A stretch of DNA of 64,000 bases, taken from the NCBI GenBank assembly GCA_039630575.1, contig JBCNUW010000001.1:96659-160658 (forward strand), in the 5' to 3' direction. Numbering within the stretch: the stretch's first letter is position 1; every line of letters begins with the position of its first letter. Under the pieces are notes generated by a model, which worked only from the letters and a program-made list of their open reading frames with translations, had not been told where the DNA came from and did not search any database. This document shows positions 13,901-64,000 of this stretch, piece after piece. This DNA comes from Candidatus Hydrothermales bacterium. GTDB lineage: Bacteria > Hydrothermota > Hydrothermia > Hydrothermales > JAJRUZ01. Both the position numbers and the translations under genes were made by a program.

Positions 13901-15772
13901 TCATTTTTCACCTCTTTTTGAAATAATAGCTATTAAACCACCAACAAAAATTAAAAAAGTTCCAATCCAAACAAGTTGAATTAGAGGATTGTAAAAAAAT
14001 TGAACATAAACAGTTTTATCTTCCTCCCAACCTTGTATTACAGCGTAAATATCACCATATAAAAGAGGTAAAACATCCATCTCTGCTGAGGGTTGTTCCC
14101 AGTTATGATAAAACCTTAAAGCAGGATAAAGCTCTCCCTCTAATTTACCTTTATTTTTTATTAAGAATTTACCTTTAACTTCGTCATAATTATGTCCAGA
14201 ACCGAAAGTAAGTCCCTCATATTCTATTTCAAAATTTTTGAATTTTACTTTTTCACCTGTTTTAAATTTCATTTCTTTTTGTTCCTTAAATCCATAAGAG
14301 GATATTATGCCTATTGCTGATATAACTATTCCTAAATGAATTAAAAAGGGACCTGTTTTACTTATTAAAAATTTTACTTTATTTATTTCTTTAAAATAGT
14401 AATACAAATTTGATAAAAAGGCGAAGGAGGATAAACCGTAGCCAAGCACAGCTCCAGGATGACGGGAAATTTTAATAAAAACAATAGAAGAAATAATTAC
14501 GCTTATAAGTAAGGAGAGAAAAAGAAAAATCCTTGATGGATTTTTATAAGTGTAAATGAAAATACCAAGAAGCAAAAGGATTAAAAGAAAAAAAGGACCA
14601 GTTGATTTAACAAAAAATAAAGACGAAACAGTTATTTTTTGACCTGTGAAGAGCTCTGAAATTATAGGAAAAAATGTGCCGAATAGTGTTATCAGAGCGA
14701 TTGCTATAAGAGAAAAAACAAATATCAAAATAAAGCCTTCTAATCCCAAAAAATTAAACCTTTCACTCTCTTTTGAAAATTTATTCTTGAATTTAATAAC
14801 AGCTAAAATTAGAAAAGAAAGATTTATAAAAACAAAAGCTCCAAAATAAGGTCCTATTTCACTTTCAGCAAAGGCATGAACAGAAGATAAAACTCCGCTC
14901 CTTGTGATATAAGTTCCTGTTAAAACAAGCACAAAAGTTATTATAATTAAGGAAAGATTCCATAACTTTAAAGTACTTTTTGTTTCTTGAATAAAAAGAG
15001 TATGAACAAAAGCTGTAGATGTTAACCATGGTAAAAAGGAGGCATTTTCTACAGGATCCCATGCCCAGTAACCTCCCCAACCAAGCTCAATATAGGCCCA
15101 CCTACCTCCAACTACAATTCCAATTGATAAAAATAGCCACGAAATTAACGTCCATTTTCTAATCTCCAAACCCCAATCCTTTCGTTCGCCTTTTATAAAA
15201 ATAGCAACAGCATAGCCTAAAGGTATTGCAAAACCCACATATCCTAGATAAATTGCAACAGGGTGAACTAACATCCACACATTTTGAAGAAGTGGATTTA
15301 AACCCTTACCATCAGGAGGAGAAAAAGGAAGTGTTTTAAAAGGATTGGTAAAAAAGAGAGTTATAAATATAAAGAAAAGGTTTATTATAGAAATTACAGC
15401 ATAAGAAATAATTCTGTGGAAATTTTCATTTTTGACTGAAAACATGTAAACAAGAAAGTATATAGATAGTATCAAAATCCAAAAGAGCATAGAACCATCC
15501 ATACCAGCCCAGAAGGCTGAGAATTTATAAATAAAAGGCAAGTTTCTTGATGTATAATTTGCTACATATAAGACTCTAAAATCAGAAGATAAAAGAAGAT
15601 ACCAAAGGATAATAGAGGAGAGAATTACAAATATTGATCCTAAAACAACAGCTCTTTTTCCAGCTTCAACAAATACATTATCCTTTTTTATAAAAAAATA
15701 AATAAATAAAAATGAGGATAACAAAAAACAAATAAAAGAACCAGTTAATGCAGAGTATCCAAGATCTGCCAT
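13901..15772 (-). CDS. ccmF: Cytochrome c heme lyase CcmF/NrfE
   Basis: WGGYWAWDPVENAS (WWD domain), GLNPLLQN..HP, TRSGVLSSVHAFA. Confidence 0.93.
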   Translation of the reverse strand: MADLGYSALTGSFICFLLSSFLFIYFFIKKDNVFVEAGKRAVVLGSIFVILSSIILWYLLLSSDFRVLYVANYTSRNLPFIYKFSAFWAGMDGSMLFWILILSIYFLVYMFSVKNENFHRIISYAVISIINLFFIFITLFFTNPFKTLPFSPPDGKGLNPLLQNVWMLVHPVAIYLGYVGFAIPLGYAVAIFIKGERKDWGLEIRKWTLISWLFLSIGIVVGGRWAYIELGWGGYWAWDPVENASFLPWLTSTAFVHTLFIQETKSTLKLWNLSLIIITFVLVLTGTYITRSGVLSSVHAFAESEIGPYFGAFVFINLSFLILAVIKFKNKFSKESERFNFLGLEGFILIFVFSLIAIALITLFGTFFPIISELFTGQKITVSSLFFVKSTGPFFLLILLLLGIFIYTYKNPSRIFLFLSLLISVIISSIVFIKISRHPGAVLGYGLSSFAFLSNLYYYFKEINKVKFLISKTGPFLIHLGIVISAIGIISSYGFKEQKEMKFKTGEKVKFKNFEIEYEGLTFGSGHNYDEVKGKFLIKNKGKLEGELYPALRFYHNWEQPSAEMDVLPLLYGDIYAVIQGWEEDKTVYVQFFYNPLIQLVWIGTFLIFVGGLIAIISKRGEK

Positions 15773-21627: not shown

Positions 21628-21654
21628 TTTATTTTACCTCCCTTAATTTACTTT

Positions 21655-21667
21655 GGGATTTGAACCC
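21655..21667 (-). promoter_or_regulatory. T-arm-like leader hairpin, copy 2
   Basis: Minus strand GGG-TTCAAAT-CCC, 27 nt before the pilin ATG. Confidence 0.6.
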
Positions 21668-21694
21668 TATATTCAACTTTTTTTAATTTTTTAT

Positions 21695-21710
21695 AGCAAA
21701 GTTTGTTCCA
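21695..21710 (-). promoter_or_regulatory. sigma54 -24/-12 promoter of pilin
   Basis: Minus strand TGGAACAAACTTTGCT versus consensus TGGCACGN4TTGCW, with exact GG-N10-GC spacing. Confidence 0.75.
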
Positions 21711-21786
21711 CAATCTTGATAATTGATTTTTAAGGAATTTTAGCTTTTCCATTTTGAAATTTGCAAATTTTATTTGCATTTTGCAA

Positions 21787-22608: not shown

Positions 22609-23372
22609 TTAAATTCTTTTCTTTCAAAAATTATTGTTGAAAGGTAAATTAGGAAAATTATGTAAACTAAACCATAAAAACTTGAGAAAATAAAATATTC
22701 CTTTCCTGGAATTCCCTCATAAACTATCTTGTTTTTAATATTGAAATGTTCAAAATTTGGCAAGATATAATAAAAGGTATAACTTAAAAACTTTAAAAGA
22801 GGGTACTTTGTAATTTCTGCAAAAAGTTTTAACGATTCAATTAGGTGCCCAATGATATAAAATAAAAAGCCAATAAATGCTGAAAAAAGAACACCTGTAA
22901 AAGTTGAAAAGAAAATTAAAAGACTAATGATAACAGAAATCTCATAAATAAATGGATAAAGTGCCACAAACATATTAAAATCGAAACGTTTATCGTTTAG
23001 CAATATAAGAAGTTGATGAAAAAATTCCATAAAAAATACATTAACTAAAACAACAGATAAAAGACCAAAGAATTTTCCTATAATTATTTCCCTTCTTCTA
23101 ACAGGTGTTGTTATGACAAGATAGATTGTTCTTTTATCCATCTCTTTATGGAGTAGAGTAGAGCCAGTTATTATTACAAGAAGAATATTAAAGAAAGTTA
23201 TAGCAGAAAGACCAAAATCCCTTAATATTTTTGACTGTTCTCCAACTGAAAGAGGATAAAGGAAAAAGGTTACAAATAACATTGTAAATCCAAAAAAAAC
23301 TATTATAAAAAATATTTTTTGTCTTGTTAATTCTTTAAAAGTGTTTTTTGATATTACAAAAATACCCTTCAT
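22605..23372 (-). CDS. ABC-2 permease (PilI/XapB-like)
   Basis: NTFKE..R, KEMDKRTIY..ITTPVRR.E.IIGKFFG, ILPNF, IFERKEF. Confidence 0.8.
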   Translation of the reverse strand: MKGIFVISKNTFKELTRQKIFFIIVFFGFTMLFVTFFLYPLSVGEQSKILRDFGLSAITFFNILLVIITGSTLLHKEMDKRTIYLVITTPVRRREIIIGKFFGLLSVVLVNVFFMEFFHQLLILLNDKRFDFNMFVALYPFIYEISVIISLLIFFSTFTGVLFSAFIGFLFYIIGHLIESLKLFAEITKYPLLKFLSYTFYYILPNFEHFNIKNKIVYEGIPGKEYFIFSSFYGLVYIIFLIYLSTIIFERKEFK

Positions 23373-24277
23373 TTTTTCTTTAAAGTTTCAACAAACCATT
23401 CCTCAAGAGTATAAACTAAAGGGTTTATCCTTATTATTTTAACCTTTTTACCACTATGAAAAATCTTCTTTAAAATATCCTCAATTTCACTTTCATTAAC
23501 TTTTAAGATATATTCATCGCCTCTTTTTTCTAAATTAAAATCTCCATAATTTTCATCAGTAAAATTTTTCAACACTATCTCATAACTTTTAATCCTTTCT
23601 CTTAATATCTCTTCAAGAGTTCCTTCCTTTACTATAGTGCCGTTAAAAATTAGAAAGACCCTATCACAAATTTCCTCAGCATCAGAGAGAATGTGGGAAG
23701 AAAAAAATACAGTTCTTCCAAAAAGTTTTTGCTCATAAATTAAATTTTTTATCTCTCTCCTACCAATAGGATCAAGACCAGTTAAAGGCTCATCTAAAAT
23801 TAAAAGCTCTGGATCCCTTATTAAAACATTAGCTATACCAATCCTCTGAAGCATTCCCCTTGAATAAGTTCTTATACTTTTCTTTCCATGATCCTTTAAC
23901 CCGACCTTTTCAAGTAGCTTTTCAATATTGCTTTTCAATTTTTTTTTCTCTATTCCGTAAAGTTCCCCTGTAAATTCGAGAAATTCATAACCAGAAAGAT
24001 GATCATAAAAATAGGGCTGTTCAGGCAAAAAACCCATCCTTCTACGAACTTCCTCTTTGTCTGGAGTTAATCCAAAAATTTTTACAATTCCCTCATCAAA
24101 GTTTAAAAGGTTAGTTAAAATTTTAATAGTTGTAGTTTTACCAGCACCGTTTGGACCTAAAAAACCTACTATTTCACCTTTTTTAACATTAAAGGAAAGT
24201 GAATTTAAAATTTTTCTTCTTTTAAAACCTGATGAAAAGTATTTTGACAAGTTTTCAACATATATAACATTTCCCAT
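23369..24277 (-). CDS. ABC transporter ATPase (PilH/XapD-like)
   Basis: GPNGAGKTT, YSRGMLQR, LDEP..GLDPIGR, SSHIL. Start moved to ATG 24277. Confidence 0.88.
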   Translation of the reverse strand: MGNVIYVENLSKYFSSGFKRRKILNSLSFNVKKGEIVGFLGPNGAGKTTTIKILTNLLNFDEGIVKIFGLTPDKEEVRRRMGFLPEQPYFYDHLSGYEFLEFTGELYGIEKKKLKSNIEKLLEKVGLKDHGKKSIRTYSRGMLQRIGIANVLIRDPELLILDEPLTGLDPIGRREIKNLIYEQKLFGRTVFFSSHILSDAEEICDRVFLIFNGTIVKEGTLEEILRERIKSYEIVLKNFTDENYGDFNLEKRGDEYILKVNESEIEDILKKIFHSGKKVKIIRINPLVYTLEEWFVETLKKK

Positions 24278-24279
24278 TT

Positions 24280-24798
24280 TTAGGGTAAAATTAGATCTAA
24301 AGGTTTTTTGGCTCCAAAAGCACAAATAGTATACCGTACAGCAACTTCACCCTCTGATGTGGTTGATCCGTCATCTTTGTAACCTGTATAGTAAATACAC
24401 CCACTTGGAGGAATAGCTGGAGGCCCTACAGGCAAATTGTCAATTGCTTTCACATCAGGTTTAAAAGGATTCCTAAAACTTAAATGGGGCAAAAGTAGAG
24501 CCTTTTCAGAGAATGGCGGAATTCTTCTTCCATCTGCAATTGACTTTTCACCTTCCGGATCATCTGATAACTCAGGATTCACGTCTTTTACTTTTGTATC
24601 AATACCACCTGGATAGTGGCCTTTGGTAATTGTAGCGTAGATCTCAACTACAGTATGAAGTGTATGCATGTTTAATTTTAATGATGCCTCCTTAGCATTA
24701 TTAACTACTCTAATATAATTAACAACTCCTATGGCTGAAAGTATACCGATTAGAGTAACAACAATTAAAAGCTCAATCAATGTAAAGGCAAATTTCAT
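24280..24798 (-). CDS. Second type IV pilin-like protein, paralog of 21049-21627
   Basis: MKFA|FTLIELL; shares AK.AS...NM.T, G.YP, LLP..F.NP and Y.I..FG.K blocks with the other pilin. Confidence 0.85.
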   Translation of the reverse strand: MKFAFTLIELLIVVTLIGILSAIGVVNYIRVVNNAKEASLKLNMHTLHTVVEIYATITKGHYPGGIDTKVKDVNPELSDDPEGEKSIADGRRIPPFSEKALLLPHLSFRNPFKPDVKAIDNLPVGPPAIPPSGCIYYTGYKDDGSTTSEGEVAVRYTICAFGAKKPLDLILP

Positions 24799-44591: not shown

Positions 44592-44604
44592 AGGATTTGA
44601 ACCA
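44592..44604 (-). promoter_or_regulatory. T-arm-like leader element, copy 4 (weaker stem)
   Basis: Minus strand TGG-TTCAAAT-CCT, 17 nt before ATG 44574. Confidence 0.45.
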
Positions 44605-50171: not shown

Positions 50172-50774
50172 CTAATCCTCCGTACTATATCCCATCGAAA
50201 TACCAAAAAATATATTAAAACCACTTAATGGGTTTGAAATTATAAAATCTGTTAAATCAGGACTATCAAGAAAATAACCTGAAGTGTATATTCCGTCTAC
50301 TCCCAAATAAAACGTAAATATACCAGGTCTTTCACGTGTTAAGTTTACATTAAACTCAATACCAGCTTTTATAACTGGATAAATATAGTTACTGTAATTT
50401 TTTTTACCTACTTCATCTAAGTTTAATTCTTGAAAACTTCCACCAATACCTACTATGGGATAAAAACCAAAAATTTTTGATTTAAGCAAATTTGCTCCAC
50501 CATCTAGAATCCAGGTTTGAAAATAAAACTTATTCAAATTGTTCGGTGAAGAAAATCTATTTTGTTGAAAGTTTAATCTTATAAAACCTTTATCCTTTTT
50601 ATAAAATCCAGCACCAAAAGTATATCCTTGAGAAAAATTTTTTAAAGTTTCACAATTTAAAAGTCTTATTTCATCATTTATGCCCTTTAAATCAAGAAAT
50701 TGAGAATTCGTGTTTAAATATATAGATATGCAAGAATTTAAAAATATCAAAAATAAAAACAATAGAACTTTCAT
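50172..50774 (-). CDS. Lipobox-bearing small beta-barrel-like protein, paralog 2
   Basis: MKVLLFLFLIFLNSC; YPIVGIG and YPVIKAG blocks. Start moved to ATG 50774 (TAATG overlap). Confidence 0.6.
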   Translation of the reverse strand: MKVLLFLFLIFLNSCISIYLNTNSQFLDLKGINDEIRLLNCETLKNFSQGYTFGAGFYKKDKGFIRLNFQQNRFSSPNNLNKFYFQTWILDGGANLLKSKIFGFYPIVGIGGSFQELNLDEVGKKNYSNYIYPVIKAGIEFNVNLTRERPGIFTFYLGVDGIYTSGYFLDSPDLTDFIISNPLSGFNIFFGISMGYSTED

Positions 50775-51418
50775 TATCTTCCTCCCAATATAATAAGTAC
50801 TCCTCCAAGTAAAATTGCCCAAATACCTTCAGGTGGAAAGAATCCAGAATACCCTAAGGTTATAAATGGTCCCTGTAACCACCTTTCAAAAGAAAATTGG
50901 TAACCTGCTGAAAAAATAAATCCAGGAGAAAAATTACTTATTTTTCCCTTTGTTACTTCCTTTATAAATGGGTAGGATATCTGAAGACCCCCTCTTATGA
51001 AAGGATAAAGTAACGTAGTAAAACTTGCATCTTTTAAACCAAATGCTTGCGAGTTAAGTATTCCCAAACCTATACCAACTATGGGATAAACATATGGTCT
51101 TACCTTTTGAAAGGGTAAAATTCCAAAATTAAAAGAACCTTGAAAATAGGTAAATTTTGTCTCAACAGCTTTATAAGTATCAGGAGGACTGTAAAGTTCA
51201 GCTTTGCCTTTCCATGTATATCCTGCTTGAAAGGATGCAGTGATTATGGCATTTTGGTCTCTCGATATAGCATCAAAGGAAAGACCTATCATCGGATCAT
51301 CAGGATAGGGAGCTTTTATACTTTTTAATTCATCCTCTAACATTGGCATATCCCCCTTATAGAGGGAAACAGCACATGACAGTAGATTTAAAAAGAAAAT
51401 TAGCTTTAAATTTTTCAT
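50774..51418 (-). CDS. Lipobox-bearing small beta-barrel-like protein, paralog 1
   Basis: LLSC; YPIVGIG and YPFIRGG blocks; C-terminal hydrophobic helix. Confidence 0.6.
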   Translation of the reverse strand: MKNLKLIFFLNLLSCAVSLYKGDMPMLEDELKSIKAPYPDDPMIGLSFDAISRDQNAIITASFQAGYTWKGKAELYSPPDTYKAVETKFTYFQGSFNFGILPFQKVRPYVYPIVGIGLGILNSQAFGLKDASFTTLLYPFIRGGLQISYPFIKEVTKGKISNFSPGFIFSAGYQFSFERWLQGPFITLGYSGFFPPEGIWAILLGGVLIILGGR

Positions 51419-52970: not shown

Positions 52971-54134
52971 ATGGGAAATATAAAAATAGTTTCAGCTGAA
53001 AATGATAGAGATTTAGAACTTTTTATAAAAACTCAAAGTGAAATTTATAAGAGTTTACCACTTGTTGGATATGTAGAACCTTTAAAAGTTTTAGAGATGA
53101 ATCATTTAAATCCAAGAGGTCACAATCCTCTTTTCAAGAAAATGTTTGTAAGGTATTTTATTGCTTTAAAGAATGATAAACCTGTAGGAAGGATTAGTGC
53201 ATATAAGGTTTTTCATAAGGTTTTTGGTATTGACGAAAAGATTACAGGTTTTTTTGGACATTTTGAATCAATTCCTGATAAGGAAGTTGCTTCATTGTTG
53301 CTTGAAAGTGCGCAGAGTTTCCTTAAAAGTTTAAATTGTGAAAAAATAATAGGTCCTGCGAGTTTTGCATATGATGGTGTTTACGGTGTTCAAATCAAAG
53401 GTTTTGAATATCTTCCGATGGTTATGACTCCCTGGAATCCTGAGTACTATTCTGATCTCATTGAAGAATGTGGATATAAGAAAATGATAGATTTTTTGGG
53501 TTGGTTTATCCCTTTATACGTAATCCATCCAAGACTATCTAAAATTGTGAGTGTAGAAGATAGACTCTATAGAGAAAATGGTATAAAAATTAGAAAGGCA
53601 AATTTAAAAAATTTTAAAGAGGAACTTAAGAAGGTAAAGGATATATACAATAGTGCTTGGGAAAACAATTTTGGAACAGTTCCTCTTGAAGAGGAGGATA
53701 TTGAGTACATAGCAGAGAATCTAAAACCTTTAATTGTGAATGATGGGGCATTAATTTCAGAGATAAAAGGTGAACCTGTAGGAGTTGCCATAGGAATTCC
53801 TAATTTTCTTGAAGCGATAAGGGATTTTAAGGGTAATTTAAATCCTCTAAACACAGTTAAACTTTTATGGCGTTTAAACAAATTGCCTTTCTCATCTGGT
53901 ATTCCAAGACTTAAATCGGCAAGACTTTTAATCCTTGGAGTAAAAAAGGAGTATCAAGAGGGTGTAGGTGTTTTGATGGCAGCAAAAATTTTACTTAAGG
54001 GTTATGAGTTTGGTTATAAATACGGAGAAGGCTCTTTAACTTTAGAGAATAATTATGATATTAACAATTTAATAAGAAGGTTAGGAGGCTTGCCTTATAA
54101 GATTTATAGGGTATTTTATAAAGAAATTTCTTAG
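52971..54134 (+). CDS. GNAT-fold protein (YghO-like)
   Basis: VGRISA, GFFGHFE, PWNPEYY, YNSAWENNFG.VP, LGVKKEYQ, YKIYRVF. Confidence 0.75.
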   Translation: MGNIKIVSAENDRDLELFIKTQSEIYKSLPLVGYVEPLKVLEMNHLNPRGHNPLFKKMFVRYFIALKNDKPVGRISAYKVFHKVFGIDEKITGFFGHFESIPDKEVASLLLESAQSFLKSLNCEKIIGPASFAYDGVYGVQIKGFEYLPMVMTPWNPEYYSDLIEECGYKKMIDFLGWFIPLYVIHPRLSKIVSVEDRLYRENGIKIRKANLKNFKEELKKVKDIYNSAWENNFGTVPLEEEDIEYIAENLKPLIVNDGALISEIKGEPVGVAIGIPNFLEAIRDFKGNLNPLNTVKLLWRLNKLPFSSGIPRLKSARLLILGVKKEYQEGVGVLMAAKILLKGYEFGYKYGEGSLTLENNYDINNLIRRLGGLPYKIYRVFYKEIS

Positions 54135-54155
54135 TTTTATCTTATAATTATAAGA

Positions 54156-54422
54156 ATGGGAGAAAAAAATTTCTCATTTTTTGAATGTAAAAGTTGTGGA
54201 ACTCCAGTTGGTACAAGGAAAAATAAAGAACCAAACTTCTGTCCGCTTTGTAGAGGCAAAATGGTAAAAATAGAAACGGAAATAGACTTAAAAATAAAAA
54301 TTTCTTGTCCTGATTGTAAAAATGAATTTTTAGTTGAGGAAAATTTTGTTCCCTATAAATGTGTATTTTGTAATTTTACTTTTACTGTTTCACCTAACCG
54401 TAGATTTGAAGAGAGACTCTAA
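54156..54422 (+). CDS. Small double zinc-ribbon protein
   Basis: Four CxxC motifs (CKSC, CPLC, CPDC, CVFC) in 88 aa. Confidence 0.7.
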   Translation: MGEKNFSFFECKSCGTPVGTRKNKEPNFCPLCRGKMVKIETEIDLKIKISCPDCKNEFLVEENFVPYKCVFCNFTFTVSPNRRFEERL

Positions 54423-55387
54423 TAAAGTGTACTAAAAATTTGTATTCTTGAATTCATTTGTTCAACAACATAAACTTTATTGTTCCTAACAAAAATACCA
54501 GCTGGTAATCTAAATTGACCTGGATCCCAACCGATTCCCTCTATACCAAGATAAACGTTCCCATACTTATCAAAAATCTGAATTCTATGAAGGAAAGCAT
54601 CTGTTACAAAAATAAAACCTTTATCGTCTACTGCTATTCCCTTCGGTCTAACAAAAAAACCTGGAGCATTACCTGATTTTCCAAAAACACTTATGACTTC
54701 TCCCTTAGTGTTTAAAATCTGAACCCTGAAGTTCCCCCACTCGCATACATAAACATTACCATCTCTATCAATGTTAATACCTCTAGGATAAAGAAATTCT
54801 CCTGGTTTGTTTCCCTTTTTACCTAATGTGTACAGAAACTGACCATCAAGATTAAAAACTTGAATTGCCATAATGCTATCATCGATGACATATAACCTAT
54901 TTCTATAATCATCAACTGTAAGATTTACAGGTTTATAAAGACCCTTTTTTATTATTAAAGACCCTTCAAATTCAGGAAACTTGATACCAAAAACAACACC
55001 AGCTCCAGGATCAGCTACATAGATCATATTTTTTGCCTCAGAAAAAGCAATCCCTGTTGGTCTTATGAATCTAAAATTACGCGAACCAAGATACCATTTA
55101 ACAACCTTATTTGTACAGTCAATAAAAACAATAGTAGAAAAACCAGGATCAGCTACCCAAATTCTTTCCTTAGTGTCAACATAAATTCCAAAGGGATACT
55201 TAAAAAGTCTTATTTTTTTTACTCCAAGAATTCTATTTAACATTCTCTTTACTATGTTAGTTTCTCCAACTACATCTTCTTTTGTGAATAGAAATTTTTC
55301 AAATTTTATTTTTGGGTCTTCAGGTGGTGGTGGCCAAAATATATCGCTTTTTATCTGAATAAAAATAAGAAAAATTAGAAAATTCAT
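54419..55387 (-). CDS. NHL-repeat six-bladed beta-propeller
   Basis: WPPPPEDPKI; repeats F..P.GI.VD..G.I.V.D...RIQIF. Confidence 0.9.
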   Translation of the reverse strand: MNFLIFLIFIQIKSDIFWPPPPEDPKIKFEKFLFTKEDVVGETNIVKRMLNRILGVKKIRLFKYPFGIYVDTKERIWVADPGFSTIVFIDCTNKVVKWYLGSRNFRFIRPTGIAFSEAKNMIYVADPGAGVVFGIKFPEFEGSLIIKKGLYKPVNLTVDDYRNRLYVIDDSIMAIQVFNLDGQFLYTLGKKGNKPGEFLYPRGINIDRDGNVYVCEWGNFRVQILNTKGEVISVFGKSGNAPGFFVRPKGIAVDDKGFIFVTDAFLHRIQIFDKYGNVYLGIEGIGWDPGQFRLPAGIFVRNNKVYVVEQMNSRIQIFSTLY

Positions 55388-56016
55388 CTCTTTTCCTCCG
55401 GTTTATGAGGATTGTGACATTCAAAACAATTTTCTTCCTTAAAATGAAAATTATTAAAGTGACATTCCTCACAAAGATCCTCTGATTTTAAAAGTCTATT
55501 TACACCTCTGTGAATTTTATGACAATTTAAACAAGATAAGACAAAATGTTTTGAAAATGAAATAAAAGTAGAAATTTTGAAATGACATTCTTTGCAAAAG
55601 GTTAATTCCTGGTCTCTTAAAAGAAATTTAGAATCTTTCAGATGGGGATCGTGACAAGTGGTACACTTTATTCCCCTTGTTTTGTCAGTTATAAAACTTT
55701 TTCCAACAGGATGATTGTTTTCATAATACTCTATTCCTAAAAATATTTTTGATGTTTCTGATATTTCGTAAAACTTTCCAATATTGGGGAACAGGTATAT
55801 AAGAAAGGTCTTGTTTGTATGACAATTCATACAGTTAAGGGAAATAAAGTCAAAATCTTTAAAAATCTCTCTTAGCTCCTCATGAGGTTGTATTTTAATT
55901 AAAAAAGGTCCTTGGGCATTATGAGAGTTATGACAAACTTCACAGATTCTTTTACCCTCCTCATTCCTGAAGTCATGAACAAATCTTGAAATTATAAAAA
56001 AGATAATTAAGGTCAT
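55384..56016 (-). CDS. Heptaheme cytochrome c with OmcE-like N-terminal module
   Basis: CEVCH, CMNCH, CTTCH, CKECH, CLNCH, CEECH, CFECH. Start moved to ATG 56016. Confidence 0.88.
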   Translation of the reverse strand: MTLIIFFIISRFVHDFRNEEGKRICEVCHNSHNAQGPFLIKIQPHEELREIFKDFDFISLNCMNCHTNKTFLIYLFPNIGKFYEISETSKIFLGIEYYENNHPVGKSFITDKTRGIKCTTCHDPHLKDSKFLLRDQELTFCKECHFKISTFISFSKHFVLSCLNCHKIHRGVNRLLKSEDLCEECHFNNFHFKEENCFECHNPHKPEEKR

Positions 56017-56810
56017 TTCTTGTGACAAACAGTACATACCGGTTTGTTTGGCCATTTTAAGTGATAACCAAATCGTGTTCCATGGGGATCATGGCAGCTA
56101 TTACAGAAGAGGTTACTTTTCTCAGCAGGATGATTAGCAACTGGATGATGATAACTATAGAGCTCCTTTTCATGACATAATGTGCATAAAATTTGTATTC
56201 TATCCTTTAAAAGCTTATTTTCCATTGAAGAGTGTGGATCATGGCATATTCCACATTCAAACATGGCATAAGGACTGTGAAGATAAAAATCATCTTTTAA
56301 TTCGTGACAGTTTACACATAATTTTTCTTCCTCAGGTTCCTCAAAGATCCTTTTATGACATTCACTACAATTTGGATCATCAAAAGGTGGGTGAAATTTT
56401 AGTCCTTTTTCAAATTTTTCTTTGTGACATATAAAACAAGAAAGATCTTCTTTTTTTGATACTCTTTTAAATTCTATATCATGACAAGCTCGACAAATTT
56501 TCTCATTTTCACTCCTATGAAACTTATAGGGCTGAAGTGGAGTTTTGAAATTAAAAGAGGGAAAGAAATAAACTGTAATTATCTTAGATTCAGTTTTTTT
56601 ATTTTTATCATAGTAAAGTATAAATTCATTTTTACCTAATTTAAGTTCTAAGATAAAGTGTTTAATATTATCAGCTGAGAAGGAATCATATAACATTTCA
56701 GGTTTTGAAATCCAGGCTTTGTCTGCATCTACTATTATCCTAACAAATCTACTTTTAATGAAAGAAATTTCCGGTGGAATTAAAAGCGAAAATAAAATAG
56801 AATTAATCAA
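56013..56810 (-). CDS. Octaheme cytochrome c with N-terminal non-heme (Ig-like?) domain
   Basis: CRACH, CFICH, CSECH, CVNCH, CGICH, CTLCH, CNSCH, CTVCH. Probable TTG start at 56810 overlapping the upstream TGA. Confidence 0.88.
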   Translation of the reverse strand: MINSILFSLLIPPEISFIKSRFVRIIVDADKAWISKPEMLYDSFSADNIKHFILELKLGKNEFILYYDKNKKTESKIITVYFFPSFNFKTPLQPYKFHRSENEKICRACHDIEFKRVSKKEDLSCFICHKEKFEKGLKFHPPFDDPNCSECHKRIFEEPEEEKLCVNCHELKDDFYLHSPYAMFECGICHDPHSSMENKLLKDRIQILCTLCHEKELYSYHHPVANHPAEKSNLFCNSCHDPHGTRFGYHLKWPNKPVCTVCHKK

Positions 56811-57691
56811 TATTCTGCTTTTCCGTGACATGCTGGTCCACAAGTTCCCTTTTTTTCAGTTTTTATGAAATCAAAATTTAAGACATAGTTGTAAGGTCCA
56901 AATTTTTTACCACCCTCAACAAGTGCAAAATTTTTTGAAAAGTGAGGGTTATGACAAAAGGAACAAACTATTCCTTTTTCTCTCTTTACATGAACTTTAT
57001 GTAAGTTTTCCTCGCCTCTTTTGAAAGAAGATTTCTCAGAAAAAAGATCTTCCAAATTATGACAATTAAAACATAACTCATACTGAAGATGAGTAAAAAA
57101 TACATAAGGTTTATTTGGATACATTGAGTTTAATAACATGGTGAAATTAGATTGATGAGGATTATGACATGTTATGCAATTTTCAATAGGTGGATGTTTA
57201 TACTTTTTTACTCTATACTGTTCTTCCATTTCCTTATGACAATCAAAACATAGTGAATTAGTTTCCCTTAATAAATATGACCTTTTATCATTTCCATGAA
57301 CATCATGACAACTTTTGCATTTACCATCAACAAAGGGCGCATGAAAACTTAATGCAGTTTTTGATAGTTCCTTATGACAGCTTGAACATAAATATGGTAG
57401 TTTTTCTCTTAGCAAAAAGTTCAAAGGTGATGAGTGAGGGTTGTGACAATGCGTGCATTTGTTATCGTTTGGGGGGTGTTTAAATTTTGATTTATTTTCA
57501 TGACAATTTAGGCAAATACTGTTAATATTTTCAATCTTTTTAAAGGGGTGTTCACCTTCAAGGTTATGGCATAATGAACAATCTTCTTTCACAGGTTGAT
57601 GTAAAACTCTTTCTTCTATCAAAATATCATGACAACCTCTTTCTGTGCAATCCCTTTCTTGTGAGATTAAAAAAATTATTAACATAATCAT
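56807..57691 (-). CDS. Multiheme cytochrome c (9 CxxCH + CX4CH + CX3CH)
   Basis: Paired HxP..CxxCHxPH..LL..LCxxCH repeats; terminal CTERGCH and CGPACH. Confidence 0.9.
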   Translation of the reverse strand: MIMLIIFLISQERDCTERGCHDILIEERVLHQPVKEDCSLCHNLEGEHPFKKIENINSICLNCHENKSKFKHPPNDNKCTHCHNPHSSPLNFLLREKLPYLCSSCHKELSKTALSFHAPFVDGKCKSCHDVHGNDKRSYLLRETNSLCFDCHKEMEEQYRVKKYKHPPIENCITCHNPHQSNFTMLLNSMYPNKPYVFFTHLQYELCFNCHNLEDLFSEKSSFKRGEENLHKVHVKREKGIVCSFCHNPHFSKNFALVEGGKKFGPYNYVLNFDFIKTEKKGTCGPACHGKAEY

Positions 57692-59265
57692 TTTATCTTA
57701 AAATCTCTTTTTAAAAGAAAGTAAAAAACAAAATTGTGCTCCTCTTTTGGGTAAATCAAATAAATATATTCAAAATTTAATTTTAAATTCAAAACGTTAT
57801 AATTCCTTTCAAAACCGACAGTCAAACTGTTTTCGAGCTTATTTCTAAAGTATAACCTCTCCTCTAGAGAAAAAATATTAAATAGTTTTAAAGGAATTTT
57901 AAGTGTAAATTTGAAAAAACTCCTTGTTAATACCAAAAAATCCGTCCTTATATATTCTTGAAAATAAGATAAATTAAGGGGCATTTGCCTAATTTTAAGA
58001 TCAATTCTTGTGCGATATTCAGTCCAAATATTCATCTTACTATTTAAAAAAGAAAAATTCCTATCAAAATTAAAGTTGAGTGTAATAATATATCTTGGTG
58101 AATCGTAAATTAAAGTTAAATTTGTATTAAAACCAAAAATTTTTTGGTTCCTTACAGGCCATTTATCATTGAAAGCTCTATAGTACAAATTATAGAAAAA
58201 TTTTAAAAATCTAAAATTCAAGAAAAAATTTTGCTCAAAAAGACCCCTATTTCCAACCAAATAGCCCCACCCTTTTCCTAACGGATCCTGACTGAAAGAA
58301 AAGGAAATATAAGGAGAAAATGTAAAAAATCTAGGGTAATTTAAAAATTTAAGGTCATATATCTGAGCTACTCTCTCATAAAACCTTGTTCCTCTTGGTA
58401 AAGAACCTGTTTCAAAATCTATAAAGGTACTAGAAATTATTCTATCTGAAAAATACTTCTTAAAACTTGAATTTAAACTTTGAGAGGTGAAAATTTTTGA
58501 TTTTTTAAAAGAGTAGTAAAAATCAAAAATGTAATCAAAATTTTTTAATTTAATATAATTAAAATTTGAGTTAGTGTAGCCATAGTTCTTTCTGAATAAA
58601 TATATTATGTTTAACTTGATTTTCCTATCTTTAGTGTTATTGTTGTAATTAAAATTTACATTTTCAAATCCTTGACCATAATCTGGAAGTTCTTTTTTGT
58701 AATTGAAATAAAAGGAATGTTTTTTTAAGGAAAAACTTGAATTAAAACCGAGGGATTTTAAAGTCAATAAGACTTCCTTATTATACGAATAGAAAAAATT
58801 AAATTTTGGAAAATTACTTAAATTAAGGGACTGCGAGATTGTATAAGTTGATTTTTTTTTAGAAAATAATATTTTATTCTCCCTTTTAAGTTCCTCTGTT
58901 TTAAAAGAGAATCTAAAAGGAAAAGAAGTTTTTGAAAAAATACTAACATCAAGAAAAAAGGGGGATTTTAAAAAAATTTTCTCTTTTTCTTTATCTAAAT
59001 TTTCCTTAAAAACTTGCCAAATAAAGTATGTTCTAAAGTCGAAAGATATAAATTCTCTTTTATACACAAAACCATTTATAATTAAGTTTAAATAATTCTC
59101 ATAATCTTTGTAAAAGGGTTTTGCTAAAGATCTCTCAAATTTACCAAAAGAAAAATATCTCTCTGAAAAGATGCTTAAGTTAAAATTTGTTATCTCAGAA
59201 TTTAAATTTTTTAAAAGAAATAAATGGGGGAGAAGAAATATTCTCCCCCATTTTATCCTAAACAC
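57688..59265 (-). CDS. Probable outer-membrane beta-barrel (porin of cytochrome cluster)
   Basis: About 525 aa of alternating aromatic strands ending FYFLLKRDF; sits between cytochrome genes. Start uncertain. Confidence 0.65.
   Translation of the reverse strand: MFRIKWGRIFLLPHLFLLKNLNSEITNFNLSIFSERYFSFGKFERSLAKPFYKDYENYLNLIINGFVYKREFISFDFRTYFIWQVFKENLDKEKEKIFLKSPFFLDVSIFSKTSFPFRFSFKTEELKRENKILFSKKKSTYTISQSLNLSNFPKFNFFYSYNKEVLLTLKSLGFNSSFSLKKHSFYFNYKKELPDYGQGFENVNFNYNNNTKDRKIKLNIIYLFRKNYGYTNSNFNYIKLKNFDYIFDFYYSFKKSKIFTSQSLNSSFKKYFSDRIISSTFIDFETGSLPRGTRFYERVAQIYDLKFLNYPRFFTFSPYISFSFSQDPLGKGWGYLVGNRGLFEQNFFLNFRFLKFFYNLYYRAFNDKWPVRNQKIFGFNTNLTLIYDSPRYIITLNFNFDRNFSFLNSKMNIWTEYRTRIDLKIRQMPLNLSYFQEYIRTDFLVLTRSFFKFTLKIPLKLFNIFSLEERLYFRNKLENSLTVGFERNYNVLNLKLNFEYIYLIYPKEEHNFVFYFLLKRDFKIK
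59222..59253 (-). terminator. 13-bp hairpin terminator/attenuator after tetraheme gene
   Basis: AAATGGGGGAGAA-6 nt-TTCTCCCCCATTT, followed on the minus strand by ATTTCTTTT. Confidence 0.75.
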
Positions 59266-59292
59266 AATAAAATTTAGAATTTAATTTACTAT

Positions 59293-59925
59293 TTACTTTA
59301 TATGACAATCAAGGCAAATTTGACTGTTTGTGGTGTCACCCCTTAAGAAACTATAGGGGGGTTGAGCAACATCTACATTATGGGGATCATGGCAAGTAGA
59401 GCAAGTCATCACTGAATCAGCACCAGGTTGTATACCTGAAAAATTATAGAGTGGATAACCCCATGTTGAAGGAGGGTTAAATTTAGTAGGCGGCAATCTT
59501 CCCGGTGCCACATCCATATCGACTGGATGAGAGTAAATAAGAGTATCATTTGTTCCACTTGTAACATCAGGAGGATCTTGAACAGCTGCACCAACATTCC
59601 TTGGACCAAATGAGTAAAGTGTCCCAAGATCAGCTCTTGTTTGAGTTCCATCATGACAGGAAAGACAAGCATAACTTATCCAAGAGGCTCTTGTCATTGG
59701 GTCTGTATAGGTTCCGTTATATAGAGCTGAAATAGTGGGTACATAAACCCTATTCCAAAGATAATAAAAATTTTGACTGGGATTAGCATTGTGCGGTGTA
59801 TGGCAGTATATGCAAACTTGTCCTGCATTGGGTCTGTTAAAATCATGCCTACTTCCTACAATTGTTGCATGAAGCCAAATATAAAAGGTTGAAAGAACTA
59901 GAACTACTATAATCATTTTCTTCAT
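59293..59925 (-). CDS. Tetraheme cytochrome c, OmcE-like (candidate nanowire subunit)
   Basis: Sec signal; HDF..QVCIYCHTPHNA..LWNR..ISYACLSCHDG..HPV..PLY..CSTCHDPH..FLR..SQICLDCHIK. Confidence 0.85.
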   Translation of the reverse strand: MKKMIIVVLVLSTFYIWLHATIVGSRHDFNRPNAGQVCIYCHTPHNANPSQNFYYLWNRVYVPTISALYNGTYTDPMTRASWISYACLSCHDGTQTRADLGTLYSFGPRNVGAAVQDPPDVTSGTNDTLIYSHPVDMDVAPGRLPPTKFNPPSTWGYPLYNFSGIQPGADSVMTCSTCHDPHNVDVAQPPYSFLRGDTTNSQICLDCHIK

Positions 59926-59949
59926 AAACTTTACCTCCTAACATATAAA

Positions 59950-59962
59950 GGGACTTGAACCC
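59950..59962 (-). promoter_or_regulatory. T-arm-like leader hairpin, copy 5
   Basis: Minus strand GGG-TTCAAGT-CCC, 24 nt before ATG 59925. Confidence 0.6.
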
Positions 59963-60018
59963 ATTTAAACTTAATACCTTATTTTTAATTTTACCTTGAT
60001 TCATAATTCAAATTCAAT

Positions 60019-60675
60019 TTAAAGAATTATCTTTATAATTGTAACAAAGAGAGAATAAAAAAACCAAAGAAAAAAAGATATGAAAATTCCCTTTTTTCTC
60101 TCAATATCACCGATGTGATGAAGGGCAAGACCATAAAGAAAAGTCGCCCATAATGTAAAAAATCCAGCCTGTTCGAGGAAAATTCTAAAAAAATTTTTCT
60201 CTGATAGGAACAATAAAAAGATAGAAAAATTAAGTTTCACATTAGGATTCCCGGTCAAAAGAGCTATAGGAAAAGCAACAATTGATCCTAAAAGATTTAT
60301 TGCATATATATGAATAGCCGAACTGAAAAAAGCAATAAAATCACCTTTTCCTTTAAAAAGTGTAGAGATTAAAAAAAATATAAATCCCAAAGTAAGAGTT
60401 TGGATAAAAAAACCAAATATACTCGAAAAGATTGTCAAAATATAGAATAAAGGTGAACCCATAAATTCCATGGCACGTTCAATAGCCTCTTCTGGTAGAT
60501 TCCTTTCACTTAATATACTCTCTTTGTTTGGTAAAATTACAAATTGGATATAAAGGAGAGTAATAATTAGAAAAGTAATTAATATTGTAGCAGAGGGTAA
60601 AAGAAGAGGTTTTTTATCCTTTATAGTTTTCAAGGCTTCATTCGGATTATAAAAGATTTTTAAGATTAGATTCAT
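60019..60675 (-). CDS. Yip1-like membrane protein
   Basis: IFYNP.EA...IK.K N-terminus, five TM segments, F.LW..FL...AL. Confidence 0.7.
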   Translation of the reverse strand: MNLILKIFYNPNEALKTIKDKKPLLLPSATILITFLIITLLYIQFVILPNKESILSERNLPEEAIERAMEFMGSPLFYILTIFSSIFGFFIQTLTLGFIFFLISTLFKGKGDFIAFFSSAIHIYAINLLGSIVAFPIALLTGNPNVKLNFSIFLLFLSEKNFFRIFLEQAGFFTLWATFLYGLALHHIGDIERKKGIFISFFLWFFYSLFVTIIKIIL

Positions 60676-60724
60676 TTATTCCTCCTTTTTATTTATAAAA
60701 ATTTTAAAATAAAAGATATAAAAA

Positions 60725-61867
60725 TTAAAGAAAAAGCAAAAGTAAAGAAGCCAAAAATGATAAAAGAGAGCATACTAAAAAAGGTACTTTCGTTCCAAAA
60801 ATTTCCCATAAAATTCCAAACAAAAAAGATGCGAATAAAAGACCAAAACCTTGTACAAAGTAAAAAAGTCCAAATCCAGTTCCCTTTTTATCTTCTGGTA
60901 AAAAACTTGATACCAATGCTCTTTCAACTCCTTCAGTTAAGCCAAAATAGAGTCCATAAAGTATAAAAAAAAATATAAAGGAAGAAAAGGAAATAGAATA
61001 GGCAAATCCTAAATAGGATAAAGAGTAAATTAACCAACCTAAAAGGAGTACTCTCTTTTTTCCAAATTTATCAGCAAAATATCCTGCTGGCAAAGAGCTT
61101 AGAGCTTTAATTAAATTCAGAACGGACCAAAAAAGTGGAATAGTAATCAAAAGAGCACCCTCATTTTTTGCCTTAAGCAGTATAAAAGTATCAGAAGCAT
61201 TTGCTATTGTGAAAATGAAAAAAATAAAAAGAAATAAATAAAACTTAAAAGGCAATTTAAAATAAAAGGAAAGTTTTTTATCTTTAGTTTTTTTAAAGTT
61301 AATTTCTCTTTCTTTTACAAATATCAGTACAAAAAGAACTGAAAAAAGTCCAGGAATAATTGAAAAATAGAAAATCTCCCTTATTGAAAAGTGCGTCAAA
61401 AGTAAAATTGTAAACAGTGGTCCTATAAAGGCGCCCAGATGATCCATAGCTCTTTGAAATGAAAAAGCTTTTCCCGATTCACTTTCAGAGACAGAAAGAG
61501 AAATGAGGGCATCTCTTGGAGCACCTCTTATTCCTTTCCCAAGTCTGTCTAAAAATCTTAAAAAAACTACCTGATATAAATTAACAGAAAAACCAACCAG
61601 TGGTCTTGTAATAGCTGCTAAAAGGTATCCTAAAACTATAATTTTTTTTCTTTCTTTAATTCTGTCTGAGATGTTACCTGAGATAAGTTTAAATAAACTT
61701 GATGTAAGTTCTGAAATTCCTTCAACTACACCTAGCCCCATTGGTCCTTTTTTTAAATTCTCAACAATAAACAAGGGAAGAAGGGGGTGAATAAGTTCAG
61801 ATGCGATATCATTAAAAAGAGAAGTAAGACCAAGAAAAAAAACATTTTTACTTAGCCACTTTTTCAT
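60725..61867 (-). CDS. MFS transporter
   Basis: SLFNDIASE, G.ISDRIKERK, DRLGKGIRGAPRDA, GYFADKFGKK. Confidence 0.9.
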   Translation of the reverse strand: MKKWLSKNVFFLGLTSLFNDIASELIHPLLPLFIVENLKKGPMGLGVVEGISELTSSLFKLISGNISDRIKERKKIIVLGYLLAAITRPLVGFSVNLYQVVFLRFLDRLGKGIRGAPRDALISLSVSESESGKAFSFQRAMDHLGAFIGPLFTILLLTHFSIREIFYFSIIPGLFSVLFVLIFVKEREINFKKTKDKKLSFYFKLPFKFYLFLFIFFIFTIANASDTFILLKAKNEGALLITIPLFWSVLNLIKALSSLPAGYFADKFGKKRVLLLGWLIYSLSYLGFAYSISFSSFIFFFILYGLYFGLTEGVERALVSSFLPEDKKGTGFGLFYFVQGFGLLFASFLFGILWEIFGTKVPFLVCSLLSFLASLLLLFL

Positions 61868-63026
61868 TTTTAAGAACTTTAGTAACTATTATAAAAGATA
61901 TAAAACCGGGAATAATGATTATTCCCCACATTAAAACTGGAATTTTAATAAAAAAATCAAGAATAATTCCACCATAAAAAGGAGCACTTGCCCAACCAAG
62001 ACCTTCAGCGAGACCTAAAAAACCTAGATAAAGATTTTCTTTTCCTTTTTTAGCATAAATTGTTCCAAAGGTTGTTACAATTGGTAAACTTAACATTTCA
62101 CCGGCAGTAAATATAAAAACACATAATGCAAAAAAATAAAAATTTGAAGCAAAAGAAAATAAAAAGTAGCCCAAAATATAGAGTAAAATTCCAAAAATTA
62201 AAGAATTTTTGAAACCTATACTTTCGGATAATTTTGTAAAAAAAATTTGAAGAATAACAACAGAAGCCCCATTTATTGTAAACAAATAACCTATAAGTGT
62301 ATTTGAGAGCCCTTTTTCCTTTGCATAAACTGATAGGGTTGAAATCATCTGCCCTGCTAATGAAAAAAGGAGAAAAATAGAAATAATATAGTAGAAGAAG
62401 ATTTTATCATCCAAAATACTTTTTATCTCTAATAAAAAATTTTTATTAGATAAAACTTCCCCTTTGGGACATTTCACCCCAAACTGAATTAAAGGTAAAA
62501 CAATAAAGGTAAGTAAAGAAGATACAGTAAAAAGTAAAGTATATGAAAAAGAAGCCAAATATCCTCCTATTGCAGGACCAATTGCAAAACCAAGATTAGT
62601 CCCTACTCTTATTATTCCATAAGATGAGGGTCTTTCCTTTTCAGGTAAATAAATTCCTACATATGAGTCTGATCCAAGAGCAAAAAGAGAAAAACCTAAA
62701 GAATTAAGAACAAATCCAAACAGAAATAAAACAGGAGTAACGTTAAATATAATGAAAATAGTAAAAAATAGAAAAGCAAAAAATCTTGACAGAAGACCAA
62801 GAACCATAAGATTTTTACAGCCCAACCTGTCTCCTATGTATCCTGAAGGAACTCTTGAAAAAGCACCTAAAAGAGAACTTAGCCCAACCATAAAACCTAT
62901 TACTTTCATAGGAATTTCCCTTTCACTATAAAGGTATATATTCAAAAAAGGAATAGATACTGAAAATGAAGCAGCAGTGAATGCTCTAGCAATGGAGATA
63001 AAAATCACCTCTCTTTTATTTGACAT
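61848..63026 (-). CDS. MFS transporter
   Basis: GYIGDRLG motif A, NLGFAIGPAIGG, about 12 TM segments. Confidence 0.88.
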   Translation of the reverse strand: MSNKREVIFISIARAFTAASFSVSIPFLNIYLYSEREIPMKVIGFMVGLSSLLGAFSRVPSGYIGDRLGCKNLMVLGLLSRFFAFLFFTIFIIFNVTPVLFLFGFVLNSLGFSLFALGSDSYVGIYLPEKERPSSYGIIRVGTNLGFAIGPAIGGYLASFSYTLLFTVSSLLTFIVLPLIQFGVKCPKGEVLSNKNFLLEIKSILDDKIFFYYIISIFLLFSLAGQMISTLSVYAKEKGLSNTLIGYLFTINGASVVILQIFFTKLSESIGFKNSLIFGILLYILGYFLFSFASNFYFFALCVFIFTAGEMLSLPIVTTFGTIYAKKGKENLYLGFLGLAEGLGWASAPFYGGIILDFFIKIPVLMWGIIIIPGFISFIIVTKVLKNEKVAK

Positions 63027-63067
63027 TTTAAATTTTAGGGGTTATATTAAAATAAGGGAGGTAAAAT

Positions 63068-64000
63068 ATGTTAGCCATCCTAATTATAAGTTTACACTAT
63101 CTTGCAAGTATTGGTTATAAGGGATTAGGAGTTGATTTTTCAATAGTTAATGAGGAAATATGGGTGAGTTTTCCAATAGAGAACAAAGTTTTAAACTATT
63201 CTACATTTCAAGAGTTTTCTATAAATGAACCAACAGTAATTCTTTACAAAAAGCCATTTACTTATGTAGTAAGTAATTTGGAAGATAAACTTTATACTTT
63301 TGAAAACAATTCTCTTTACTACAGTATAAACATACCAGAAGGTGACTATGTATCAGGCTGTCTACATGAGAATCAAATTTATCTTTTAAGTAGAACTCCA
63401 GCAAATATAGTAAAAATAAATGAAAATTTTGTTTTCACAGTTATGCAAGTTCCTTCCTATAAACCAATTGATTTTAAACCCTTTAAGAATGAGTTTTATA
63501 TTCTTGATAGAAAGGCTTCAGCACCAAGTTTAAGAATTTTAAAAATAAATGAAGAGGGTACCATAGTTGGCACACTACTCGACTTACCGGGAGTCTTAGG
63601 GGGAGGTTTTGAAATTGCGGAAATAAATGGAAATAAAATTTTACTTTTAACAAATGCATTGATGGGTAGAATTTATATTTACTTTTTAGATCCATTAATA
63701 AAAATAGATTCATTTGGAAGCTATGGTGATTCAATTTTTGAATTTAAGACACCAACAAAAATCAAGTATATAAATCAAAAAATTTATATTTTAAACCAAA
63801 GAAATTCAAGAATTGATATATATACTTTTGACAATTTTTATACACCAGAAATAATAGTTTTAAAAGAAAATCCATTTGATAACATAAAGGTATCTAAGGA
63901 AGAAATTTTTTTTGATTTAAAGTTACCTGAGGGAAATTATGATCTTAACATATTCTCTATTGATGGAAGAAAAATTTTAGAATTAGACAATTTTATTACA
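63068..64000 (+). CDS. Exported beta-propeller (NHL-like) protein, partial; possible C-terminal sorting/FlgD-like domain
   Basis: Not in the ORF track because it runs off the window end. GGGAGG RBS, MLAILIISLHY..., SFGSYGDSIFEFKTPTKI..IYILNQRNSRIDIY, LNIFSIDGRKI. Confidence 0.65.
   Translation, partial: MLAILIISLHYLASIGYKGLGVDFSIVNEEIWVSFPIENKVLNYSTFQEFSINEPTVILYKKPFTYVVSNLEDKLYTFENNSLYYSINIPEGDYVSGCLHENQIYLLSRTPANIVKINENFVFTVMQVPSYKPIDFKPFKNEFYILDRKASAPSLRILKINEEGTIVGTLLDLPGVLGGGFEIAEINGNKILLLTNALMGRIYIYFLDPLIKIDSFGSYGDSIFEFKTPTKIKYINQKIYILNQRNSRIDIYTFDNFYTPEIIVLKENPFDNIKVSKEEIFFDLKLPEGNYDLNIFSIDGRKILELDNFIT

Follow-up and report, generated by a model that had tools for sequence, protein, structure and literature searches.

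An OmcE-type cytochrome operon in a hot-spring member of candidate division WOR-3, with candidate genes for the ends of its predicted filament

The stretch of DNA analysed here (the window, 64,000 nt) lies on contig JBCNUW010000001.1 of the Candidatus Hydrothermales assembly GCA_039630575.1, positions 96,659 to 160,658, and carries on its minus strand a six-gene operon (54419..59925 in window numbering, used for the whole operon) that begins with a gene for a tetraheme cytochrome c. By every feature of sequence and context that could be tested, save for lipoprotein propellers, the encoded protein belongs to the OmcE family, and filament formation is likely from its sequence. The explanation that we consider probable is that it builds a heme-lined extracellular filament, exported and anchored via a predicted outer-membrane barrel and fed by cytochromes with 7, 8 and 11 hemes. 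The source genome (G000, whose contigs include C1, C3, C4 and C12) comprises 95 contigs with a total of 1.89 Mb, at 94.7% completeness. Its GC content is about 30% both at the cluster and genome-wide, and the cluster is therefore not distinct from its host. An earlier note on this DNA had supposed an AT-rich lineage other than Geobacter, and this proved correct. Among the matches listed, the nearest relatives of the tetraheme protein come from candidate division WOR-3 (P0002, 83% identity; L001, 69%), and AspS, a marker proposed in that note for taxonomy, is 73% identical between the window and the WOR-3 locus L001. The stretch also occurs in two hot-spring metagenome DNA runs from a single study, one of which may be the source sample.

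The tetraheme protein (59293..59925, minus strand; 210 aa with a signal peptide) is the predicted filament subunit. A phmmer search of solved structures returned 7TFS (E 2.4e-14) and 9YUQ (E 1.9e-13) and no others, and both matches span the whole mature protein. The former is OmcE of Geobacter sulfurreducens; the latter, judging from its name, length and 16 chains, is the OmcE bundle of Desulfuromonas soudanensis. With a profile of 50 homologues the E-values fell to 3.5e-55 and 1.4e-49, the next match being OmcS at 2.6e-5 over one short stretch, so that the suspected kinship with OmcE was upheld by the very comparison with OmcE and OmcS that the earlier note had suggested. The family is large, with 2721 hits in the homologue search. 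The 50 rows of the profile were drawn from 120 listed hits and comprise 28 short four-motif proteins and 22 picked by hand; the invariance of their cysteines is thus partly selected, because rows were chosen by motif or by hand. The distal histidines were not a selection criterion. Four of them (H27, H45, H133 and H182) are in register with both 7TFS and 9YUQ and invariant in 50/50 rows, so all eight heme-ligand histidines are conserved in the protein. The four spare histidines that the earlier note had counted in the mature part are these same residues; H19 falls inside the signal peptide.

In OmcE, a heme is ligated by a histidine of the neighbouring subunit (PMC9473688, PMC12307469), and four conserved distal histidines in register are a feature by which PMC13712944 recognizes the OmcE family, one borne out here by the 50/50 invariance. 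From the OmcS pattern, H45 would be the inter-subunit ligand donor. The composition of the subunit is also distinctive: the fraction of lysine plus glutamate in the mature protein is 0.011, as compared with 0.064 in a nearby 13-heme cytochrome, 0.19–0.21 in the other three cytochromes and a genome median of 0.19. A quick tree built from 56 among the 119 homologues listed and three further sequences, 59 OmcE-like proteins in all, gave two WOR-3 groups, each supported, whose joint origin it did not resolve.

The six co-oriented genes were recovered by an open reading frame check at the positions first described, the last five overlapping their neighbours by 4–37 nt; 27 nt separate the tetraheme gene (hereafter omcE) from the barrel gene. 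After omcE come, all on the minus strand, the barrel (57688..59265), an 11-heme cytochrome (56807..57691), an 8-heme cytochrome (56013..56843), a 7-heme cytochrome (55384..56016) and an NHL-repeat β-propeller (54419..55387). The 7-heme reading frame as called covers 55384–56055, and its start is most likely at 56016, which gives 210 aa, as in its homologues; the start codon of the barrel is uncertain. The reported total of 30 heme motifs and an 11-heme protein stands if variant motifs are admitted. Counted strictly as CxxCH there are 28 (4 + 9 + 8 + 7), and the remaining two are a CX4CH (CTERGCH) and a CX3CH (CGPACH) in the 11-heme protein, kept in 4/5 and 5/5 homologues, respectively. This protein, rich in lysine and glutamate and built of paired CXXCH repeats, is likely a periplasmic or barrel-associated relay. 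The 8-heme protein has an N-terminal domain of about 100 aa without heme, and its C-terminal unit closes like OmcE (HP..CxxCHxxH..CxxCHxK-stop). A CcmF/NrfE heme lyase gene for system I maturation was found in the window (13901..15772, minus strand), as had been claimed, and CcmE and CcmC-like genes sit on contigs other than that of ccmF. Upstream Yip1 and MFS genes were weighed as members of the cluster. They adjoin omcE in the window and in L001, L018 and L019 (Yip1), and were excluded because this neighbourhood is not kept in L020, L021 and L046.

The second gene of the operon encodes a 525-aa protein with no match in Pfam or NCBIfam. In the ESM Atlas it lies among large outer-membrane barrels (features 0.95–0.96, structure TM 0.77–0.82), with MtrB/PioB at TM 0.61. 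An AlphaFold2 model from 8 sequences, itself of low confidence (pTM 0.40), has some 25 long strands, and a fold search with it gave top matches that were almost all membrane barrels, with TonB receptors, porins and MtrB tied at Z ~13 (MtrB: Z 13.3, rmsd 3.1 over 218 residues). Foldseek found nothing at E <= 0.001, and its weak rows were again porins and TonB receptors. The Atlas, AlphaFold2 and fold-search results therefore lead us to read the protein, as the earlier note had, as a predicted outer-membrane barrel of no assigned family, likely a secretion pore or anchor. Elsewhere in the window, two tandem proteins of about 215 aa (50172–51418), also lacking Pfam matches and conserved in G048, resemble small outer-membrane barrels.

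The propeller identified in the earlier note is a clear NHL protein (E 1.6e-22) and shares 28% identity with the propeller encoded at a gammaproteobacterial omcE locus; it has no lipobox cysteine at its N-terminus. Another propeller-like gene lies on the plus strand 3 kb away, from 63068 to 64000 and past the end of the window (C1:159726-160775; 349 aa), followed by the gene for the 13-heme cytochrome, which lies outside the window (C1:160772-162706, plus strand; 644 aa, with 11 CxxCH, one CX3CH and one CX4CH). This pair is transcribed divergently from the operon, and in two other families it is found inside it. The C-terminal domain of the second propeller (residues 273–347, the last 75) resembles type IX sorting domains, with E 2.6e-9 to a profile that draws on 39 of the 41 TIGR04183 matches in the genome, and 5/7 homologues match as well. 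The protein itself falls under the public cut-offs (Pfam 16.8 versus 27; outside the 41 TIGR04183 matches); its homologue in G087 exceeds that of TIGR04183. PorV and SprA, the two components searched for, both score over cut-off (C3, C12), and the cytochromes of the locus carry no type IX sorting domain. Among 80 metagenome loci with relatives of the 13-heme protein, many of them short, an OmcE-like gene occurs in 16, an NHL gene in 32 and a sorting-domain gene in 11; by this co-occurrence the arrangement therefore reaches other lineages.

Two of the accessory cytochromes appear to contain an OmcE module of their own. Aligned to the OmcE profile, the 7-heme family covers 130 columns (probability 99.2) and the 13-heme family 129 (98.4), the latter figure depending on the family alignment, as the 13-heme protein taken as a single sequence covers 37; the 8-heme and 11-heme families, like seven further multihemes encoded in the genome, reach at most 65. 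Residues 13–146 of the 7-heme protein align to the entire OmcE subunit. The 13-heme protein starts with an OmcE-like module, has an insert without hemes and ends in a variable C-terminus; it shares 35% identity with its G087 counterpart over 442 aa, and the ESM Atlas gave it only leads below 0.9. Its gene is present in 8/272 genomes of the phylum, among them all 6 with omcE, and directly follows the second propeller in 7/7 genomes where the upstream DNA is assembled. The insert (residues ~205–295), rich in threonine, asparagine and tryptophan, lies between two heme motifs in 8/8 homologues and could conceivably be an adhesion domain. In other lineages, four metagenome loci (L050, L063, L066 and L075) encode cytochromes of 550–570 aa with a strong OmcE module, carrying 11 hemes in the two that were counted, and three of these loci also have a stand-alone omcE.

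It is conceivable, and we put it no higher than a tentative suggestion, that operons of this type encode the ends of their own filament, the 7-heme protein serving as anchor or terminator and the 13-heme protein as a tip served by the propeller exported through type IX secretion. The former would amount to an OmcE module plus three hemes with one spare histidine, and the latter to an OmcE-like module plus nine hemes. The anchor of an OmcE filament has been proposed to have 2n+1 histidines (PMC13712944), and the 7-heme protein, with 15 histidines invariant in 5/5 homologues for its 7 hemes, has just this count. Several points tell against the suggestion. Four of the five homologues come from one family, the histidine count of the 8-heme protein is ambiguous (15 invariant, up to 18), and the module is N-terminal in both candidates, so that simple head-to-tail stacking would place both at the same end of the filament. 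Alternatively, one of them may pair with the OmcE-like C-terminus of the 8-heme protein. Judged by sequence, the 13-heme protein is a candidate tip or surface partner and the 7-heme protein a candidate anchor or cap. If true, the suggestion would fill a gap by naming the parts that start and end OmcE wires, in a hot-spring member of a phylum that is not known to carry out extracellular electron transfer.

Signals around omcE may point to abundant expression of the subunit. A strong ribosome site, AGGAGG, lies 8 nt upstream of the ATG, and a hairpin with a 13-bp G/C stem and a T-rich tract (59222..59253, minus strand) lies just 3′ of the gene, 40 nt past the stop codon, and overlaps the start of the barrel reading frame by its first codons. 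A strong hairpin of differing sequence occupies the same site in 6/6 genomes (z −2.6 to −5.0; no T-tract in G073), and L046 also has one after omcE. None of six other junctions in the window, used as a control, has such a structure (z −0.8 to +1.4). The hairpin is likely a partial terminator or an mRNA-stabilizing stem and, together with the ribosome site, would fit omcE as a major structural subunit made in excess. A scan for σ70 promoters gave chance level (38 versus 40.7), and an Rfam scan of 53000–64000 gave no match.

Upstream of omcE is also a motif resembling a tRNA T-loop (GGGTTCAAGTCCC, 59950..59962, minus strand), 36 nt before the start codon. Its consensus, GGTTCRANTCC, has 100 copies in the genome outside tRNA and tmRNA genes, as against 3 in base-shuffled genomes, and 61 of the 100 lie 28–46 nt upstream of the ATG of a gene start, compared with 1% of random positions. 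In the window the sites are at 59961(−), the one before omcE, and at 44603(−), 39964(−), 21666(−) and 3471(+). The motif looks like a lineage-wide promoter or 5′-leader element. A T-loop-like motif reportedly occurs upstream of genes in other bacteria as well; our literature search did not find the report.

The distribution of omcE in the phylum is sparse. It was found in 6/272 genomes, single-sequence and profile searches agreeing, with four carriers in the family of the window and one each in two further families of the same class; being related to one another, the carriers do not count as independent cases. L001, L018, L019 and L046 all have the six genes in an identical order. In G050 and G074 most accessory genes are present and the contigs stop short of the expected position of omcE, and G047, a member of the same genus that is 95% complete, had no match to the omcE, 13-heme or 7-heme gene, the three searched for. 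The order in G087 is omcE, barrel, propeller, 14-heme, 11-, 8- and 7-heme, NHL, a c554-type cytochrome, a membrane multiheme, Rieske and cytochrome b, and G073 starts in like manner. Metagenome locus L046 holds within 15 kb the operon, the divergent propeller/13-heme pair, Rieske and cytochrome b genes, a 9-heme gene and an 18-heme NapC-type gene. In G087, G073 and L046 the operon thus lies on one stretch of DNA with genes for Rieske, cytochrome b and membrane multiheme proteins, and these three kinds of gene share a locus in L046 and L020.

In the source genome itself, an inner-membrane cluster at C4:43498-52508 (L041) encodes a 16-heme protein fused to cytochrome b, an 18-heme NapC-type protein, two pairs of cytochrome b561 and a 9-heme protein, and a c554-type tetraheme. 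It is likely the quinol-oxidizing partner of the operon; its 18-heme gene is homologous to that of L046 and occurs in 16/272 genomes. The earlier description of the six genes as a complete system for extracellular electron transfer and nanowire assembly was too strong, in that the quinol-oxidizing module lies on C4 and two further genes, for the second propeller and the 13-heme protein, lie beyond the operon. A survey of part of the terminal reductases found one molybdopterin protein and one NiFe hydrogenase subunit, and no heme-copper oxidase was found in the 94.7% complete genome. At C3:835-4546 (L040) are genes for an 8-heme lipoprotein, a 364-aa barrel-like protein with no Pfam match, a 12-heme cytochrome and a small 2-heme lipoprotein, possibly a second porin-cytochrome cluster. 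The window also encodes a pair of type IV pilins beside an ABC transporter and a TPR-like protein (21049–24798), an arrangement that may parallel the Geobacter pilA-xap locus. Many exported proteins (e.g., those at 54419, 56807 and 63068) apparently have unusually short signal peptides of about 10–14 residues, with an N-region that is often uncharged.

The proposed mechanism would begin with the full-length OmcE homologue, which has all eight heme-ligand histidines, in a genome that carries system I maturation genes. One histidine per subunit would ligate a heme of its neighbour and yield a head-to-tail wire, the ribosome site and the hairpin presumably raising the amount of subunit far above that of the accessory proteins. 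Quinol would be oxidized by inner-membrane cytochrome b and NapC-type multihemes (on C4, and adjacent to the operon in relatives), and electrons would pass to the periplasmic multihemes, through the barrel and onto the filament. The last step is the most speculative: the NHL propeller might aid folding or assembly, the tagged propeller might reach the surface by type IX secretion, and the 13-heme protein might be the surface terminal to an insoluble acceptor (iron or manganese oxide, or sulfur) or to a partner cell.

Several observations weigh against the filament reading. Identity to the solved OmcEs is modest and the subfamily sits on a long branch of the quick tree, and the contrast in lysine and glutamate is much weaker in G087 (0.05 versus 0.08–0.15). 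No relatives of the barrel outside the lineage were detected by sequence searches, and hhalign to five gammaproteobacterial barrels adjacent to omcE was weak (probability 42, E 2.6e-4, 81 columns). Neither propeller has a cysteine within its first 45 residues, unlike the lipoprotein propellers of the minimal omcE cluster of Desulfuromonadia. The AlphaFold2 monomer of the subunit, modelled without hemes, is poor (pLDDT 53), and a Foldseek search with it gave no structural match; both are uninformative either way. Even for Geobacter, what cytochrome filaments do physiologically, and whether they serve respiration, is contested (PMC11077965, PMC13194489), and the sole WOR-3 isolate, which may or may not carry the cluster, does not reduce ferric citrate or ferrihydrite (PMC12285271).

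These same proteins could, though we think it unlikely, form an MtrAB-type conduit, in which the 11-heme (or 8-heme) protein threads the barrel, the tetraheme and 13-heme proteins act as surface-bound terminal reductases, either monomeric or in short oligomers, and no long filament forms. The barrel is of MtrB size, MtrB is among its tied top fold matches (Z 13.3) and its Atlas neighbours (TM 0.61), and the best full-family score of the 11-heme protein is to the DmsE/MtrA decahemes. That score is 90 bits against a cut-off of 192 in TIGR03508, and with 11 hemes the protein stands outside the decaheme definition; no MtrB family model matched the barrel. The two members of the tetraheme family with solved structures both form filaments, the hairpin suggests that the tetraheme protein is made in large excess, and a separate cluster with a 12-heme protein, a barrel-like protein and an 8-heme lipoprotein is present on C3. 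Conduit and filament roles are, in any case, not mutually exclusive.

A filament could also be mainly a biofilm scaffold, an adhesin or an electron store, solids being respired via another conduit or pili. A biofilm role has been proposed for OmcE bundles, Geobacter mutants that have lost each of the three filament cytochromes remain able to reduce Fe(III) oxide (PMC11077965), the congener G047 had no match to the three genes, and the window encodes two type IV pilins. The operon linkage to Rieske, cytochrome b and membrane multihemes in G087, G073 and L046 points instead to a respiratory chain, and we regard the scaffold role as improbable. Heme wires have no intrinsic direction of electron flow, and the chain might run inward, taking up electrons from reduced minerals or partner cells. 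Such uptake has been proposed for the Desulfovibrio ferrophilus clusters with NHL propellers, and NHL propellers and outer-membrane cytochromes have together been tied to it (PMC5815863). Given that no heme-copper oxidase was detected, in a survey that took in part of the terminal reductases, and that WOR-3 are described as heterotrophs (PMC12285271), which need an electron sink, we regard an inward chain as very improbable here.

Work on related clusters makes the operon less surprising than it first seemed, because the family has 2721 hits and PMC13712944, which defines OmcE clusters by a barrel and a propeller, already lists five phyla (Thermodesulfobacteriota, Pseudomonadota, Aquificota, Campylobacterota and Nitrospirota), along with five-heme OmcE-like proteins in uncultured species of diverse phyla. 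According to the same paper, operons hold no tip candidate and an anchor candidate is found only unlinked, and the start and stop of the filament are listed as open. "WOR-3" does not occur in its available main text, and our literature search found no report of an OmcE cluster in WOR-3, the supplements and the original OmcE and osc papers, which may list homologues, being outside its scope. Likewise, the words heme, multiheme, nanowire and extracellular electron do not occur in the available text of a survey of 181 WOR-3 genomes (PMC12542636). The WOR-3 isolate respires O2 and S0, does not reduce Fe(III) and has pili; since it reduces sulfur without an established route, the question of extracellular electron transfer is a live one in the group (PMC12285271). 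With this operon, a sixth bacterial phylum, largely uncultured and here represented from hot springs, would have a full OmcE cluster. The cluster points to respiration of minerals or sulfur, or from cell to cell, in a group for which the published metabolic surveys leave multiheme cytochromes unmentioned. The compact operon puts names to candidate proteins for the start and the stop of OmcE filaments, and the hot-spring subunit might be of use as a heat-stable nanowire.

The system is of a known type, and what sets it apart is its host phylum, a propeller with a type IX tag, the hairpin after omcE and two accessory cytochromes with OmcE modules. Like the clusters of OmcE GSU0618 (7TFS) and DSOUD_2954 (9YUQ), it combines a full-length tetraheme homologue, four CxxCH and four distal histidines in register, with an adjoining large barrel, propeller and multiheme genes. 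It differs from them in having three to four multihemes to their two, in belonging to none of the five listed phyla, in propellers that are not lipoproteins, one with a type IX sorting-like domain, and in the absence of a glycosylation cluster after the operon. Two of its accessory cytochromes contain a whole OmcE-like module, unlike those of the clusters described in the available text of PMC13712944. The second propeller shares a C-terminal sorting-like domain with type IX cargo, in a genome that has PorV, SprA and 41 sorting-domain matches; our literature search turned up nothing that connects type IX secretion with electron transfer by multihemes. With MtrAB (6R2Q) the operon shares a large barrel gene beside a 10- to 11-heme cytochrome and a resemblance in fold, whereas the family models are not reached and no MtrC-like lipoprotein is encoded in it. 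Finally, the osc (omcS companion) operon of G. sulfurreducens, as described in PMC13194489 and PMC13712944, likewise co-encodes secretion and folding proteins and multihemes, with a porin-like export model, whereas the WOR-3 subunit is of the OmcE type and not a hexaheme OmcS (E 2.6e-5).

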